Below are positions 5,343-34,232 of a DNA stretch of 64,000 nt, piece after piece. The translations under genes were made by a program, and so were the position numbers. The number at the start of each line of letters is the position of its first letter. Positions within the stretch are counted from its first letter, which is position 1. Below the pieces are notes generated by a model. The model saw only the letters and a program-made list of their open reading frames with translations. It did not search any database and was not told where the DNA came from. Origin of the DNA: a virus; IMG/VR virus record IMGVR_UViG_3300025849_000022, positions 1 through 64,000 of that record, one strand, 5' to 3'.

Positions 5343-6113
5343 TTATGTGAACGATAAAAAGGTCTCAATTCCTAGTTGATTGTAGTTATTAAAGGTCATT
5401 TTGGCACCACTTAGTGTGCCACCTTTACCACTGCCAGTATCTAAGAATATTACTCTTTCTTCTTTCTTGGTGTAATATACTAAAGGCATTTTTAAGTTGT
5501 CTTCGAAATCAGGTTCACTTTTTAACGGTGATCTGTCGTGTCCAACAAATACAATTTGCCCTTTGGGTATTGCTTCTGCCCAATCATATACTCTATGAGC
5601 ATACATTTGACCCTTCCACTCGACTTGTTTTGAGTTATCTACTTGCCCGTATAAGAATACACTTTCCATAGACTTCTTAGTTATTTTTTTGGTTTCCCAA
5701 AACTCAGGATGTACCCCACCATGTGTAAAGAAAAAGTTTTTGTAACTAGCATAAAATGGTTGTTGTGAACCAACGTACAATACAAGATCTCTAAATAAGT
5801 CTATACCAAAGTCAACTCTTGCTAGAGTATCTCTTTGAGGTTTACCTAACTTAACATCATTGCCTTTTGCCCAACGAAAAAGTTTGTTATCGTGGTTACC
5901 TTGTAAAATAGTACCGTGCCCAGCATCAATTATTTCTTTTGCTAACAGCATGGTTTCTAAAGGCTTTGGACCGTAATCTAATATATCACCTAATTGCAGG
6001 TAATATAAATTGTGTTTACGAGCATATGAATATGAAGTAGCAAAGTCAGAGAATACTGAGTGAACATCGCCCACTACAAGTATACCTTTATAACTTTCTA
6101 AATTAAGTTCCAT
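5343..6113 (-). CDS. calcineurin-like metallophosphoesterase (PrpA/ApaH/Pnkp-phosphatase type)
   Basis: GDVH, GDILDYGP, GNHD, THGG, VGH, LDTG motifs. Confidence 0.9.
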   Translation of the reverse strand: MELNLESYKGILVVGDVHSVFSDFATSYSYARKHNLYYLQLGDILDYGPKPLETMLLAKEIIDAGHGTILQGNHDNKLFRWAKGNDVKLGKPQRDTLARVDFGIDLFRDLVLYVGSQQPFYASYKNFFFTHGGVHPEFWETKKITKKSMESVFLYGQVDNSKQVEWKGQMYAHRVYDWAEAIPKGQIVFVGHDRSPLKSEPDFEDNLKMPLVYYTKKEERVIFLDTGSGKGGTLSGAKMTFNNYNQLGIETFLSFT

Positions 6114-6143
6114 AACTCCTACTCAACTACTTAATACACATAT

Positions 6144-6172
6144 ATTATACTAAAAATAAGGGTGCAAGTCAA
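6144..6172 (-). promoter_or_regulatory. sigma70-type early promoter
   Basis: TTGACT-N17-TATAAT, GTAGGAG RBS. Confidence 0.8.
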
Positions 6173-7249: not shown

Positions 7250-7571
7250 GTGTAGTATTTACTACTACTGACTCAATTGTGCCTATATTATCTGGTTTTT
7301 TGCTGGGTGCTCTGGCTAACTCTATAAATGTAAGCATGTCACCGGTGTTCTCAAAGTAAATTCTCCATATATTGTCGCTACCAAGTGTAGACATATAGAG
7401 TAAACCTTGTCCATACTCATCGAAGTGCGATACTAAATCAAATATAGTATCGTCTTCCATTGTATTAGAATAAATGCAGATTTTGTTTTTCATTAGGTTC
7501 TCATAGGTTAGAGTACCTTTTAAACCTTCTAGTTCACCTGCGCCTAATTTTTTACTTACGTGAATCTTCAT
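7236..7571 (-). CDS. hypothetical protein
   Basis: 111 aa ORF overlapping neighbours. Confidence 0.6.
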   Translation of the reverse strand: MKIHVSKKLGAGELEGLKGTLTYENLMKNKICIYSNTMEDDTIFDLVSHFDEYGQGLLYMSTLGSDNIWRIYFENTGDMLTFIELARAPSKKPDNIGTIESVVVNTTHDAE

Positions 7572-8794
7572 GCTTTATATTTTACCGATACACCGTATGG
7601 TGCTTCTGGAGTTCTGCCACCGTAGCCAGAACCATGAATTATAAACAATGTATCACAGTATGTTTCATCGCCCCAACTACCCCATGGGTAACCATCTGTG
7701 AATACAATTAACTTCTGTGGTACAATGTCTTCCTCTTTGAGTCTATCAAACATACAATCAAACTCAGTACCACCACCGCCTTCAATTTCAATATCATAAA
7801 TGTCATCTACGTTAGTAGAATCGAACTCATGAATAGTGTATGTAGATGTGTCAAAGAAACAAAGTCTAAGTTTGAAGTTAGTGTATTGCTCCATGCAACC
7901 TTTTACTTCGCTTAGAAGGTCTCTAAGCATTTCATCTGACATAGAACCGGAACTATCAATAAAGCAGAACACATCTAAGTCTGTGTCGTAGTCCATACCA
8001 GGAAGGTAAACGTGTTCAGCAATACCTTTTCTAGCAGGTCTCATAAATGTAAAGTCATTCTTTACAACACTTTGAATATTGGTAGCAAGTAACTCTCTCC
8101 AATCTAACTCAGGATTAGTAAGATCCTTAATCATCTTTCTAACGCCATTAGGAAGATCTTTGTTACCAGCACCTTTGGCCGCATTCATTACGGCTTCTTT
8201 TACTTCGTCATTGATCTGTTGTCTTTCTTCTTTAGAATACTTTGGTGGCCCGTCTTGTTGATCACCACCTTCACCTTTACCTTTAGCACCCTGACCGTCA
8301 CCATCTTCATTACTGAAGTCTAAATGCATGTCAAGTGTTTCTTCAGTAATCTTTTCTGCGTTCTCGTACAAGTCGTCGTATATCTCATCTGAAATCCAGT
8401 TTTGATATTTGTAGTCAAAACAGATATTAACTTTGGTAATTCTCTTACCAATATTATTTTCAACTAAGTCCATGTTCACAACATAGTCATTTGCTATGTT
8501 CCAAAGACGAGGATCTCTATTACCACGTCTATCCATGTGATCATAAACATTATGGAGAACCTCATGACCCATTAAAAAGATAAGTTCGTCATCATCTAAT
8601 GACTGGATGAATTCTGTATTATAAAAAAAGTATCTGCCATCTGTTGCGGCAGTCGGGCACCAACTAGATGCTTCTTGTAATTGTAACCTAGTTGCTAAGT
8701 TACCAAAGAAACCATTCTTAAGAAGTAATTGCACTCTAGCAGTTATTAATCTGTCCTTAACTACTTGATCTGTTTTTTGTGCTAAATTGTTCAT
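7568..8794 (-). CDS. DUF2201-type metallopeptidase + vWA domain protein (MoxR partner)
   Basis: TAATDG, HEVLH zincin motif, MIDAS DSSGS, GGGGT, FTDG. Confidence 0.9.
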   Translation of the reverse strand: MNNLAQKTDQVVKDRLITARVQLLLKNGFFGNLATRLQLQEASSWCPTAATDGRYFFYNTEFIQSLDDDELIFLMGHEVLHNVYDHMDRRGNRDPRLWNIANDYVVNMDLVENNIGKRITKVNICFDYKYQNWISDEIYDDLYENAEKITEETLDMHLDFSNEDGDGQGAKGKGEGGDQQDGPPKYSKEERQQINDEVKEAVMNAAKGAGNKDLPNGVRKMIKDLTNPELDWRELLATNIQSVVKNDFTFMRPARKGIAEHVYLPGMDYDTDLDVFCFIDSSGSMSDEMLRDLLSEVKGCMEQYTNFKLRLCFFDTSTYTIHEFDSTNVDDIYDIEIEGGGGTEFDCMFDRLKEEDIVPQKLIVFTDGYPWGSWGDETYCDTLFIIHGSGYGGRTPEAPYGVSVKYKA

Positions 8795-8822
8795 TGTGTG
8801 TTCTCCTACAAACTATACTTAT

Positions 8823-8851
8823 ATTATACTAAAAAAACTGGGTGTGGTCAA
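8823..8851 (-). promoter_or_regulatory. sigma70-type early promoter
   Basis: TTGACC-N17-TATAAT, TGTAGGAG RBS. Confidence 0.85.
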
Positions 8852-8865
8852 CCTATTATTTTGGG

Positions 8866-8897
8866 AAAAAGGTGGGGGGACCTGATTAGATCCCCCC
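8866..8897 (-). terminator. intrinsic terminator after moxR
   Basis: GGGGGGAUC-UAAUCA-GGUCCCCCC stem then ACCUUUUU. Confidence 0.75.
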
Positions 8898-8950
8898 TTA
8901 GTCTGTGCCGCTATGTAGGTTGTAGGAGTAACTGGCGACACAGGAACTAA
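8866..8950 (-). ncRNA. candidate 3'UTR-derived antisense sRNA with anti-RBS loop
   Basis: Stem UUAGU/CUGUGUCGC pairs with GCGGCACAG/ACUAA; 23-nt loop contains UUACUCCUACAACCUAC; terminator follows. Confidence 0.5.
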
Positions 8951-10030
8951 CTAGTCAATGTTCATGTATTTTCCGTATCTGTCAACCCATTCATCGATAC
9001 GTTTTACATCAGCAAAGTCGACATCGATATCGTATTCGCTCAATGCAATTTTACAACCTAATACACACATCTCAGGTTCAAAGTTATCCATTAAGAAGTT
9101 GATGAAGTTATTGAATGAACTTGTAAGTTCTTTCTCATCACCATTATCTTGGATACCTTTTAATTCGTAACTCATACCTACAGTAAGAGCATACTTGGAA
9201 GAAATTTCTAACTTCTTCAACTCTTTGACCTTACCTGAAAGGATTTCAGATGGCTTAGGAAGTTTAGAAGCATTCTTCTTGTGATTCATAAACTTGATTG
9301 CCATGCCTTCACCAACCAAACCAGTAACAATGTCCATTTCCTCTTCATGAGTCATGTCACTGTCTTCTAGCATTTGGCTAACGAATGCCCAAGACCTAGG
9401 AGTAGCAAAACTCCTACTTGAACTTTTTGGATCAAAGTCAAAAAGGTCTTGTTTAGCAAAAGCCAAGTAACCAACAACATCTGGATTGATGTCGTTATCA
9501 ACTGCCCAAGACTGCCAATCGTCATGATTAACTTCAACTTCTAAGTGAAGGAATCTGTTTGCTAAAGGACTTGGCATCCTGTAAGTAACACCTTTATCAG
9601 TGTCTCTGTTACCAGCCGCCGCAATTACCACGTTATCTGGTAATACATATTGTCCAACCCTACGGTTAAGGATCAACTGGTAAGCAGTTGCCTGCACACT
9701 TGGAGGTGCAGAGTTAAGTTCATCTAAGAACAAGAAGACAGTCTCATACTGGCTAGCAAGTTCTTCTGATGGTAGTTCGGCAGGTGCCGCCCACATCATT
9801 TTGTTAGTGTCCTCATCTCTGTAAGGATACCCTTTGATATCTGTTGGGTCTAGCAAAGCCATTCTCAAATCAATTAAAAGGTTGTTACCTTCTTCAGCGA
9901 TCTGAGCCAGTACGTCGGACTTACCAACTCCTGGAGGACCCCAAATAAATACAGGACGTTTTTTATTAAAAGCACGTTTGATGTGGCTCTTTGCCCTGCT
10001 TAGTTTTACTGTTCGAATGTTATCTGACAT
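8951..10030 (-). CDS. MoxR-type AAA+ ATPase
   Basis: WGPPGVGKS, LFLDE, AAGN, PLANRF, TPRSW. Confidence 0.9.
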   Translation of the reverse strand: MSDNIRTVKLSRAKSHIKRAFNKKRPVFIWGPPGVGKSDVLAQIAEEGNNLLIDLRMALLDPTDIKGYPYRDEDTNKMMWAAPAELPSEELASQYETVFLFLDELNSAPPSVQATAYQLILNRRVGQYVLPDNVVIAAAGNRDTDKGVTYRMPSPLANRFLHLEVEVNHDDWQSWAVDNDINPDVVGYLAFAKQDLFDFDPKSSSRSFATPRSWAFVSQMLEDSDMTHEEEMDIVTGLVGEGMAIKFMNHKKNASKLPKPSEILSGKVKELKKLEISSKYALTVGMSYELKGIQDNGDEKELTSSFNNFINFLMDNFEPEMCVLGCKIALSEYDIDVDFADVKRIDEWVDRYGKYMNID

Positions 10031-10065
10031 ATAATTACTCCTACGAAATTATTTAATATACAACT

Positions 10066-10094
10066 ATTATACTAAAAATCATGACCAAGGTCAA
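10066..10094 (-). promoter_or_regulatory. sigma70-type early promoter (moxR)
   Basis: TTGACC-N17-TATAAT, GTAGGAGTAA RBS. Confidence 0.85.
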
Positions 10095-10287: not shown

Positions 10288-10757
10288 TATGCTGTTTGTT
10301 GAACACCTGAAAGAACATCTGAAGTGATGTCCTTGAAACCCCATTTATCAACAATGTTATATGAATCTTCTACTGAATCATACACAATGTCGCCTACTGA
10401 AAGAGAGTGCATGTCACGATATGTACATACCTCACCATCTTTTCTAGTGAAAGTCTTCATCTTGAAGCCACTAACAAATGTATCAAACCACTGATCAAAA
10501 CCAGTATCATCATCAAAGTAGTAACCATTCAAAATTTTGAATACTTCTTCTAAGTTGCTGTCTTCAAATTGAGCAACTTCGCAAACTTGGGTATAATGAT
10601 TAAACATTTCTCCCTTGAAACCTTCGGCACCATGCATCACTTCCATGTGTGCATTGTACTCAGGATATTTTTCAGCGGCACCTGTGTGTCCTCTGTCATT
10701 AGAATTAACGAAGTCTGTTACCTCGTCACTTAACTTGATTTGAAATACTTTATACAT
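10287..10757 (-). CDS. YodL-like early protein
   Basis: YKVFQI N-terminus and HSLSVGDIV motif. Confidence 0.65.
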   Translation of the reverse strand: MYKVFQIKLSDEVTDFVNSNDRGHTGAAEKYPEYNAHMEVMHGAEGFKGEMFNHYTQVCEVAQFEDSNLEEVFKILNGYYFDDDTGFDQWFDTFVSGFKMKTFTRKDGEVCTYRDMHSLSVGDIVYDSVEDSYNIVDKWGFKDITSDVLSGVQQTA

Positions 10758-10790
10758 AAAAACTCCTACCTTTTTACAAATTATGCATAT

Positions 10791-10819
10791 ATTATACTAA
10801 ATTTTGTGGGTATGGTCAA
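10791..10819 (-). promoter_or_regulatory. sigma70-type early promoter
   Basis: TTGACC-N17-TATAAT, GGTAGGAG RBS. Confidence 0.85.
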
Positions 10820-33786: not shown

Positions 33787-34163
33787 TATACGTTCCTCAC
33801 TATGTTTGCATTACTATAATCTAAGATGTTACCTTTCTCATCTCTACCAGGAGATGTTGTAGCATGTAAAATGCTATCAAACTCTCTAATATCAATACCA
33901 GTTCTATTAAGAACACTATCAATAACTCTATCTCTCATCACCTTAAGATGAGGAACATTAACACTTACAGGATACTCAGAACCTTCTGGGTGGTCAATGT
34001 TTTCTTCATGTCCATACCACATTTCTTCTAACGAAGTAAGTTGTATATTTACAGATTTGCCATCATCTTCGTTGGCATTGTAGCAAGTAAAAGAACCAAT
34101 ATGATATCCAGGTATGGAAACAATTTTGTCCTTGCTTTGATTTTTTGTATTTAAGTTTTGCAT
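33786..34163 (-). CDS. hypothetical early protein
   Basis: GGTAGGAGG RBS, promoter 34204-34232. Confidence 0.65.
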   Translation of the reverse strand: MQNLNTKNQSKDKIVSIPGYHIGSFTCYNANEDDGKSVNIQLTSLEEMWYGHEENIDHPEGSEYPVSVNVPHLKVMRDRVIDSVLNRTGIDIREFDSILHATTSPGRDEKGNILDYSNANIVRNV

Positions 34164-34203
34164 TAAGACCTCCTACCGTCTGTGTTTGCTAAATTATGTA
34201 TAT

Positions 34204-34232
34204 ATTATAGCAAATTATAGGGTCGAGGTCAA
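34204..34232 (-). promoter_or_regulatory. sigma70-type early promoter
   Basis: TTGACC-N17-TATAAT. Confidence 0.8.

Follow-up and report, generated by a model that had tools for sequence, protein, structure and literature searches.

A conserved 3'UTR hairpin loop of a phage moxR gene is complementary to the gene's own ribosome-binding site

The moxR-like gene of a phage found in aquatic samples carries, in its 3' untranslated region (3'UTR), a conserved hairpin whose large open loop is complementary to the ribosome-binding site (RBS) of the same mRNA. On balance, we think that this hairpin probably serves as a 3'UTR anti-RBS element of the icaR kind and limits the translation of MoxR, either in cis or as a 3' fragment. 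An earlier note on this DNA had read the same hairpin as a trans-acting small RNA (sRNA) that shuts off the translation of early genes, and the evidence bearing on both readings is laid out below.

The window analyzed here covers the first 64 kb of a viral contig from IMG/VR (88,308 bp), which has an estimated completeness of about 24%, a GC content of 33-41% and almost all of its genes on the minus strand. Sequencing runs of marine, estuarine and other aquatic origin, drawn from 13 studies, contain DNA of the window. The closest cultured relatives by protein are Pseudomonas jumbo phages of the PA5oct group; a DNA search of cultured phages recovered no close relative, and every relative recovered from them by protein search was at most 50% identical. 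The moxR product matches Pfam AAA_5 and the PHROG family phrog_1297 ('ATPase', E = 6.5e-101), and it is 49.6% identical to the ATPase of Pseudomonas phage PA5oct. Synteny of moxR with the downstream gene, here called vWA, was seen in 74 of 86 lineages. The vWA product (7568-8794) also matches phrog_1314, labeled 'HNH endonuclease', and PA5oct-like phages have relatives of it that carry the annotation homing endonuclease or hydrolase; its Pfam domains, those of a DUF2201_N metallopeptidase and a VWA-like protein, suggest that the endonuclease label is wrong. The region 8300-9600 is present in RNA-seq libraries X15-X20, which come from six studies of freshwater, estuary and marine sites, with 77-86% of the sampled words recovered. 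This occurrence across six studies suggests that the phage group is abundant, actively infecting, and salinity-tolerant or widely distributed. The features of the moxR-vWA region are as follows.

8951..10030, minus strand: moxR-like AAA+ ATPase gene (359 aa, from the ORF list), whose mRNA is the parent of the hairpin
8953-8951, minus strand: moxR stop codon, TAG
7568..8794, minus strand: gene for a DUF2201 metallopeptidase/VWA-like protein (408 aa; Pfam DUF2201_N, E = 2e-42, and DUF2201), the usual partner of moxR
8898..8950, minus strand: hairpin P1, 14 bp (5 + 9), from the predicted fold
8950-8946 / 8902-8898, minus strand: lower stem of P1, UUAGU/ACUAA, with a UC bulge after the 5' arm
8943-8935 / 8911-8903, minus strand: upper stem of P1, CUGUGUCGC / GCGGCACAG, with one U-G pair
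8934-8912, minus strand: open 23-nt loop CAGUUACUCCUACAACCUACAUA, unpaired in the minimum free energy (MFE) and centroid structures
8933-8922, minus strand: anti-RBS core of the loop, AGUUACUCCUAC; opening energy of the loop 0.8 kcal/mol
8866..8897, minus strand: intrinsic terminator with a 10-bp GC-rich stem (8897-8874), an AAUC loop, ACC, and U5 at 8870-8866
10066..10094, minus strand: sigma-70-type moxR promoter, TTGACC-17-TATAAT, 11/12 consensus matches, kept in relatives
10033..10044, minus strand: moxR ribosome-binding region GUAGGAGUAAUU (-14 to -3), the proposed target of the loop; opening energy 2.4 kcal/mol, kept in relatives
8823..8851, minus strand: promoter of the downstream gene, TTGACC-17-TATAAT, with invariant -35 and -10 boxes and a variable spacer
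8795..8822, minus strand: 28-nt leader of the downstream gene (vWA), in which UUGUAGGAG at 8811-8803 is a 9-nt complement of the loop

On the minus strand, the moxR stop codon is followed directly by P1 with its 23-nt open loop and then by the terminator, and both the coordinates and the fold agree with the earlier note on this point. Its observations that CCUACA occurs twice in the loop, and that each stem holds a G-U pair that marks the RNA as minus-strand, were likewise confirmed: the terminator stem and the upper stem of P1 each contain one U-G pair, and the minus strand folds with an MFE of -35.5 kcal/mol and a z-score of -5.2 (0 of 200 shuffles were equally stable), versus a z-score of -1.5 for the plus strand. 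Only the second hairpin has the GC-rich stem-loop, U-run and gene-end position of a Rho-independent terminator; P1 has no U-run. A search of Rfam 15 over 8000-10000 returned nothing overlapping the element up to E = 10, and at the Rfam gathering threshold seven related loci yielded tRNA only. Two micro-ORFs (8819..8941 on the minus strand and 8798..8950 on the plus strand) were rejected as coding candidates; they cross the terminator and promoter, and 1-, 2- and 3-nt indels in relatives, located at the 3' end of the loop and in the terminator (in its loop), break the frame.

The loop is under strong constraint. Among nine distinct close relatives whose MoxR proteins are 90-98% identical, 17 of its first 19 positions are invariant, as are 8 of the 9 positions in the 5' arm, compared to only 26/99 and 16/90 of the third codon positions in the flanking genes. 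The vWA leader through SD+3 is invariant in the same relatives (23/23). In the terminator of relatives, the stem is kept and the loop varies.

To look further afield, we used a 15-mer from the loop as a search query, and the results were mostly chance or coding matches. The search led to five further lineages in which the stems differ, the loop core is the same and the terminator is present. In these lineages the element lies directly after a 364-aa MoxR homologue that is 51-55% identical, with a VWA homologue next in most, and an inner hairpin is inserted in the loop in most of them. This extra hairpin (in L051, L055, L070, L100 and L074) sits between the first UAUCCUACA motif and the GUUACUCCUACAACCUA motif; because the insert sequences are unrelated, the inner hairpins were apparently added independently or represent a variable domain. 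Two more lineages, L126 and L127, were added by a protein-profile scan. Since the 15-mer search is biased towards unchanged loops, the clade was re-sampled by protein only, and the element was found, with a variant loop, in all eight new loci (64-81% identical to the MoxR of L074). In one relative, L220, a tRNA gene (2921-2994) lies about 300 nt downstream of the 3'UTR element, and the VWA gene is not directly next there.

The lineages that bear the element form one deep MoxR clade (SH-aLRT 97 in a quick IQ-TREE run) whose proteins are 51-63% identical. Every sampled member of this clade has the element, which is strictly syntenic with moxR and always lies in its 3'UTR. The loop is nearly invariant across the clade: the core GUUACUCCUACA is kept, and CCUAC(A) repeats occur two to three times per loop in all members. 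Loop conservation in relatives, a check that the earlier note had suggested, was thus borne out at both distances. Covariation was seen in the stem as well. The stem arms are non-homologous and could not be aligned with MAFFT, so pairs were counted on a reduced alignment and by script. The script count over 14 distinct stem-arm pairs found that all 115 of 115 positions pair, 12 of them as G-U, which would be A-C mismatches on the opposite strand. Double substitutions are found in the stems, for example CCUUGUGC/GCACAAGG versus CCUUAUAC/GUAUAAGG. In the reduced alignment, 100% of cells were paired, compensatory pairs were present, and the covariation score exceeded that of 499 of 500 shuffles. 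Two covariance models, R1 and R2, proved too sequence-specific, with one copy in the window, weak scores for distant loci and L220-L229 missed; they were not used for covariation. Because all arms pair, G-U pairs and double substitutions are present, and the stem covaries, we conclude that the element is a real RNA structure of the transcribed strand, and that it serves to display the loop.

The RBS of moxR itself is the partner that the loop matches most consistently. Loop positions 8933-8922 and the moxR RBS GUAGGAGUAAUU are predicted to form a 12-bp duplex of -15.3 to -17.5 kcal/mol, and this duplex is favorable in net terms because both sites are cheap to open (0.8 and 2.4 kcal/mol). It contains 10 Watson-Crick pairs, or 12 pairs when the next U-G and U-A are counted. 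The pairing lengths given in the earlier note, 10 nt with the moxR RBS and 9 contiguous base pairs with the vWA leader, both proved correct. In relatives within the clade, the uninterrupted complement to the moxR RBS spans 7-11 nt, with only 7 nt in L223-226. Several lineages have changed leader and loop together: L220-222 have the leader GGAGUAACAUA with the loop UAUGUUACUCC, and L126 has UAGGAGUAA with UUACUCCUA plus UAUGUAGGU with ACCUACAUA. A second paired segment, UAGGUUG with CAACCUA, is found in L100, L074 and L121, and for 7 of 13 lineages we predict a bipartite duplex, with one half of the loop bound to the leader's 5' end and the adjacent half to the RBS. When leader and loop come from the same lineage, their pairing averages -18.1 kcal/mol within the clade, compared to -16.5 kcal/mol for swapped pairs (permutation p = 0.005). 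Co-variation of loop and RBS, for which the earlier note had proposed a test, was seen in part: the leader does change with the loop in L220-222 and L126, but the loop is nearly invariant, the changes are few, and in L011 the match is weakened to 8 nt with no compensation.

On the 88-kb contig, moxR ranks first of 68 genes for complementarity when each start region is compared with its own 3'UTR. We also asked how this feature is distributed across phage moxR genes. The moxR start region (-25 to +3) was compared with the 90 nt that directly follow its own stop codon in 86 lineage clusters, with moxR loci sampled as the best 80 per scan, and an uninterrupted Watson-Crick complement of at least 9 nt was scored. 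By this measure, in which the GGAG/CUCC core common to both sides inflates any SD versus anti-SD comparison, 16 of the 86 own pairs scored, versus 1.5% of swapped pairs and 0.9% of pairs with shuffled start regions. None of 20000 permutations reached 16, the maximum being 8, and an energy-based version of the own-versus-swapped test gave p of about 4e-4. Controls using the promoter segment of the same leader (3/86) or a window further downstream (3/81) stayed near background, and a same-sense (direct-repeat) control was higher (5/86) because its window often takes in the similar RBS of the next gene. With the statistic held fixed, 66 new lineages taken from metagenome contigs for replication gave 7 hits, versus 1.3% of swapped pairs and with 0 of 20000 permutations reaching this number. 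The hit in L232 is a promoter-like artefact of AT-rich sequence, and new solutions such as GCCCGUGACA/UGUCACGGGC appear in the set.

The complements found in other moxR clades are unrelated in sequence to that of the window: AGGAGCGCAA/UUGCGCUCCU, GGACACAGCC/GGCUGUGUCC, AGACUCUCAC/GUGAGAGUCU, GGAGUAAACA/UGUUUACUCC, GAAAGGAGUA/UACUCCUUUC and UCCACAACA/UGUUGUGGA. They extend into the moxR-specific spacer between SD and AUG, sequences that no other gene shares, and most sit in hairpin loops or single-stranded RNA just 5' of the terminator. The start region of L177, L248 and L298, GGACACAGCC, resembles the 3' arm of their own terminator, and its complement lies in the apical part of that terminator, so that the start region could compete with terminator formation; this geometry differs from that of the window, which has a separate presenter hairpin. 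The feature is confined to roughly a fifth to a tenth of the moxR lineages. It is missing in the largest MoxR clade (48 lineages), and in the cultured phages PA5oct, 121Q, SP154 and Atu_ph07 the terminator is a plain one and the 3'UTR holds no complement of the start region.

These data also bear on the possibility that P1 is an ordinary extra hairpin ahead of a terminator, whose loop happens to hold an anti-SD-like word. When many comparisons are made, it is not unusual for a 23-nt loop to hold a 7-mer match, and intragenic sites reach similar duplex energies. Such a hairpin would nevertheless have to come under purifying selection in its loop (17/19 positions invariant, versus about 22% at third codon positions), be retained across a deep clade with covarying stems, and show an own-versus-swapped excess that was replicated. 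We regard a chance origin as extremely improbable.

Another reading is that the CCUAC repeats bind a phage or host protein, or that the hairpin protects the 3' end of the mRNA, and that the RBS match is incidental. The presence of two to three CCUAC(A) repeats in the loops of all clade members, the strong conservation of the loop beyond the 12 pairing nucleotides, and the position of a stable hairpin immediately ahead of the terminator are all compatible with it. Under this reading, however, the conserved matching GUAGG/GGAGUAA segments of the moxR leader would go unexplained, as would the different self-complementary pairs of unrelated lineages and the mirroring of loop changes in the leader. 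Protein binding or 3'-end protection as the main function is therefore quite improbable in our judgment.

The earlier note had been drawn to GUAGGAG, the RBS word shared by genes behind strong promoters, and this observation holds. The coding strand of the 88-kb contig holds 13 copies of GTAGGAG, of which 11 stand at RBS position. All eight GUAGGAG starts that had been listed (1887, 2825, 6113, 8794, 10030, 10757, 34163 and 30892) were found, and the first seven all lie behind GGTTGACC-N17-TATAAT. On the contig, 7 of 15 promoter-proximal genes have the word at their RBS, whereas among the remaining genes 3 of 110 do (Fisher p = 8e-6). The loop favors promoter-proximal starts beyond what a generic CUCCU would give, as only 3 of 300 flank-shuffled loops did as well. 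In flanking sequence from lineages with CUCCUAC loops, GTAGGAG is found at 10 of 30 RGGAG RBSs, including two in L051 that belong to genes besides moxR and vWA, versus 0 of 31 in other lineages. The GU ahead of AGGAG adds no pairing with a standard 16S 3' end.

Near-identical promoter-leader cassettes lie at 1887-1946, 2825-2889, 6113-6172, 8794-8851, 10030-10094, 10757-10819 and 34163-34232 of the window and at 86509-86571 of the contig. Their layout is (A)GGTTGACC-N17-TAGTATAAT, a start A(T/G)(A/T)T(G/A)TATA, and then (G)GTAGGAG, with several ending in AAAAAGGTAGGAGTTTTTATG; they look like duplicated early-expression cassettes. Beyond the window, at contig 66650-66740 (L206), the RBSs of a divergent gene pair are inverted repeats of each other over 10 nt, TTACTCCTAC ... 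GTAGGAGTAA. One gene of the pair, on the minus strand at 65835-66650, encodes a class-3 lipase/esterase, and its RBS can pair with the moxR 3'UTR loop over 12 nt.

On the reading put forward in the earlier note, an RNA of about 85 nt derived from the moxR 3'UTR would act in trans on all GUAGGAG-led early mRNAs as a timer of early translation. The enrichment of GUAGGAG at promoter-proximal genes, the loop preference and the 10/30 versus 0/31 contrast between lineages all speak for this reading, as does the element's architecture, in which a conserved seed lies upstream of an intrinsic terminator shared with the parent, as is typical of sRNAs. Two further genes, the lipase gene at contig 65835-66650 and the gene at 79767-80927, can pair with the loop over 11-12 nt. 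The common early leader GGUAGGAGUUUUU, in contrast, pairs with the loop over only 8 nt (about -13 to -14.5 kcal/mol), and when the loop was compared with the whole transcriptome by RNAduplex, start regions were not singled out: intragenic sites reached -19 to -22 kcal/mol. For this reason thermodynamic target prediction alone was dropped as evidence. Moreover, complementarity in other clades is specific to moxR, the vWA start region matches the moxR 3'UTR over at least 9 nt in only 4 of 71 lineages, and GUAGGAG may be common merely through copies of the homologous cassette.

In metatranscriptome contigs from three studies the hairpin is contiguous with moxR; such contigs cannot show ends, strand, pairing or a small RNA, so they provide no evidence of a separate one. 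In X20 no contig covers 8800-8971, and in X16 coverage is missing at 8871-8907; these gaps carry no weight. A conserved promoter was not found in the last 300 nt of moxR. The sole promoter-like site that might drive a stand-alone sRNA (9075-9048) matches the consensus at 9 of 12 positions, is not conserved, and was rejected. Weighing these points, we find it rather unlikely that the element acts mainly as an sRNA timer of early translation. The fuller scheme, in which a 3' fragment survives decay and represses its parent, the VWA partner and all GUAGGAG-led early mRNAs as an early-to-middle timer, appears unlikely.

The vWA gene lies immediately downstream, and the loop could instead control read-through transcripts. 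In phage T4, an RNA helix masks the SD or AUG of genes e, soc, 49 and I-TevI, and the outcome is set by the promoter from which the transcript starts (PMC3014915). By analogy, the loop would sequester the vWA RBS on transcripts that pass the moxR terminator, so that vWA translation would be restricted to transcripts from its own promoter, or the loop would in this way set the MoxR:VWA ratio. The loop and the vWA leader share 9 contiguous complementary nucleotides plus imperfect complementarity that extends upstream of UUGUAGGAG (-17.8 kcal/mol in total), the leader is fully invariant among close relatives, and in L074 the second loop motif UAUCCUACA is the exact complement of the vWA RBS UGUAGGAUA. 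Contigs bridge the terminator in X15 and X19, although these may reflect DNA carry-over, and the moxR contig is about 3-fold deeper than the vWA contig in X15 and X16, with the break in the intergenic region or at the 5' end of the vWA gene. There is no general excess of matches between vWA start regions and moxR 3'UTRs, however, as all but one of the 4/71 cases of at least 9 nt lie in the GUAGGAG clade, and the element is kept in L095 and L121 although the next gene is on the other strand. The T4 helices resemble this arrangement as a form of phage translational control, which fits a possible effect on the vWA leader, but they are local, with the pairing arm a few nucleotides upstream of the RBS, whereas the distance here is about 1.1 kb for moxR or about 100 nt across terminator and promoter for vWA. 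Read-through control as the main function is very doubtful.

Together, these results favor gene-specific self-regulation of moxR over a global timer, because the longest match of the loop is to its own RBS and spacer, the element is strictly syntenic with moxR, and the leader changes with the loop. Much of what the sRNA proposal rested on stands, namely a conserved minus-strand RNA, an accessible anti-RBS loop, a terminator and the link between GUAGGAG and early genes; trans-acting shut-off of early genes as the main function finds no support in the moxR-only synteny, the longest match at moxR's own RBS, the 8-nt pairing of most early leaders or the lack of a conserved internal promoter. In the model we prefer, stem P1 would hold the 23-nt loop open, and the loop core AGUUACUCCUAC would pair with the SD and spacer (-14 to -3) of moxR's own mRNA, GUAGGAGUAAUU. 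As soon as transcription has passed the 3' end, the tail could close onto the start within one molecule; alternatively, pairing could occur between molecules by means of a nuclease-resistant 3' fragment made up of hairpin and terminator. Such pairing would block 30S binding and probably speed decay, thereby capping or time-limiting MoxR synthesis. A 12-bp duplex that spans 1.1 kb must compete with ribosomes and local structure. In the clade of the window, the same loop may also reach the leader of the partner vWA, on read-through RNA or in trans. If a 3' fragment is used, it would be the sRNA of the earlier proposal, but with the parent mRNA as its prime target, and a wider effect on GUAGGAG-led early mRNAs is possible as a weaker inference. 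Pairing in vivo, repression and the choice between cis and trans modes are what we infer from sequence comparison.

The closest parallels come from bacteria. In Staphylococcus aureus, the icaR 3'UTR pairs with the SD of its own mRNA, which keeps the initiation complex from forming and generates a site for RNase III (PMC3868564). Pairing between 5'- and 3'-UTR is also known for hbs of Bacillus subtilis (PMC5737220), and in the same species the RBS is bound by anti-SD-like words that lie hundreds of nucleotides further along, which destabilize the mRNA and block initiation (PMC12697547). As with icaR, the anti-SD word of the window lies in the 3'UTR of the transcript that carries its SD (loop 8933-8922 between the stop at 8951 and the terminator; target 10044-10033 behind the moxR promoter), the complementarity to the SD region is accessible, the two sites are coupled in evolution (16/86, 7/66, p = 0.005), and the proposed logic is the same. 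The likeness is one of mechanism class and not of a homologous family, as there is no sequence homology and the carrier here is a phage gene. Whereas icaR has a long 3'UTR with UCCCCUG, the moxR 3'UTR is about 85 nt and places the anti-RBS in a large open loop directly before the terminator; the predicted pairing also reaches into the SD-AUG spacer, and the design, known here from sequence, recurs with different sequences in many lineages.

Other known regulators share parts of this arrangement. Enterobacterial 3'UTR-derived sRNAs of the Hfq type, such as CpxQ, DapZ and SroC, act in trans on other mRNAs in an Hfq-dependent manner and are released from an internal promoter or by RNase E. Like them, the moxR element has a conserved seed just upstream of the parent's Rho-independent terminator and as an RNA would have its 3' end in common with the parent, but its best target is the parent mRNA itself. 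The C-rich loop sRNAs of Firmicutes, RNAIII and RsaE, are stand-alone genes with UCCC motifs and many trans targets. They resemble the element in that several pyrimidine-rich anti-SD words in hairpin loops pair with SD regions; they differ in that the element of the window is a 3'UTR with CCUAC motifs. In phage T4, the endoribonuclease RegB cuts GGAG in early SDs (PMC1702504), and RegB and the repressor RegA shut off early mRNAs via their RBSs (PMC1702504, PMC3014915). RegA and RegB would be the functional analogue of an sRNA timer, but they are protein effectors, and the element of the window appears gene-specific.

The earlier note knew of no description of such an element. The mechanism class is in fact known from bacteria, as icaR shows, but three things are new to the extent that the literature searched shows: the RNA motif, its occurrence in a phage, and the repeated independent evolution of the design within a single gene family. 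In bacteria, regulation of an RBS by its own 3'UTR rests on very few examples (icaR and hbs), and we found no phage case. The phage moxR family offers the same design with a presenter hairpin in one deep clade and about a dozen unrelated solutions elsewhere, and because the design recurs with unrelated sequences, it appears to have been selected repeatedly and to be no mere curiosity. The natural covariation of moxR leader and loop constitutes a ready-made series of compensatory mutations. If the sRNA timer were true, it would be an RNA-only early-to-middle switch that does the job of the T4 RegA and RegB proteins, and if the 3' fragment acts in trans as well, it would represent a new kind of phage early-gene shut-off. 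For the moxR family itself, the element points to tight control of the dosage or timing of the MoxR-ATPase/DUF2201-VWA pair, which is widespread among phages and functionally obscure.
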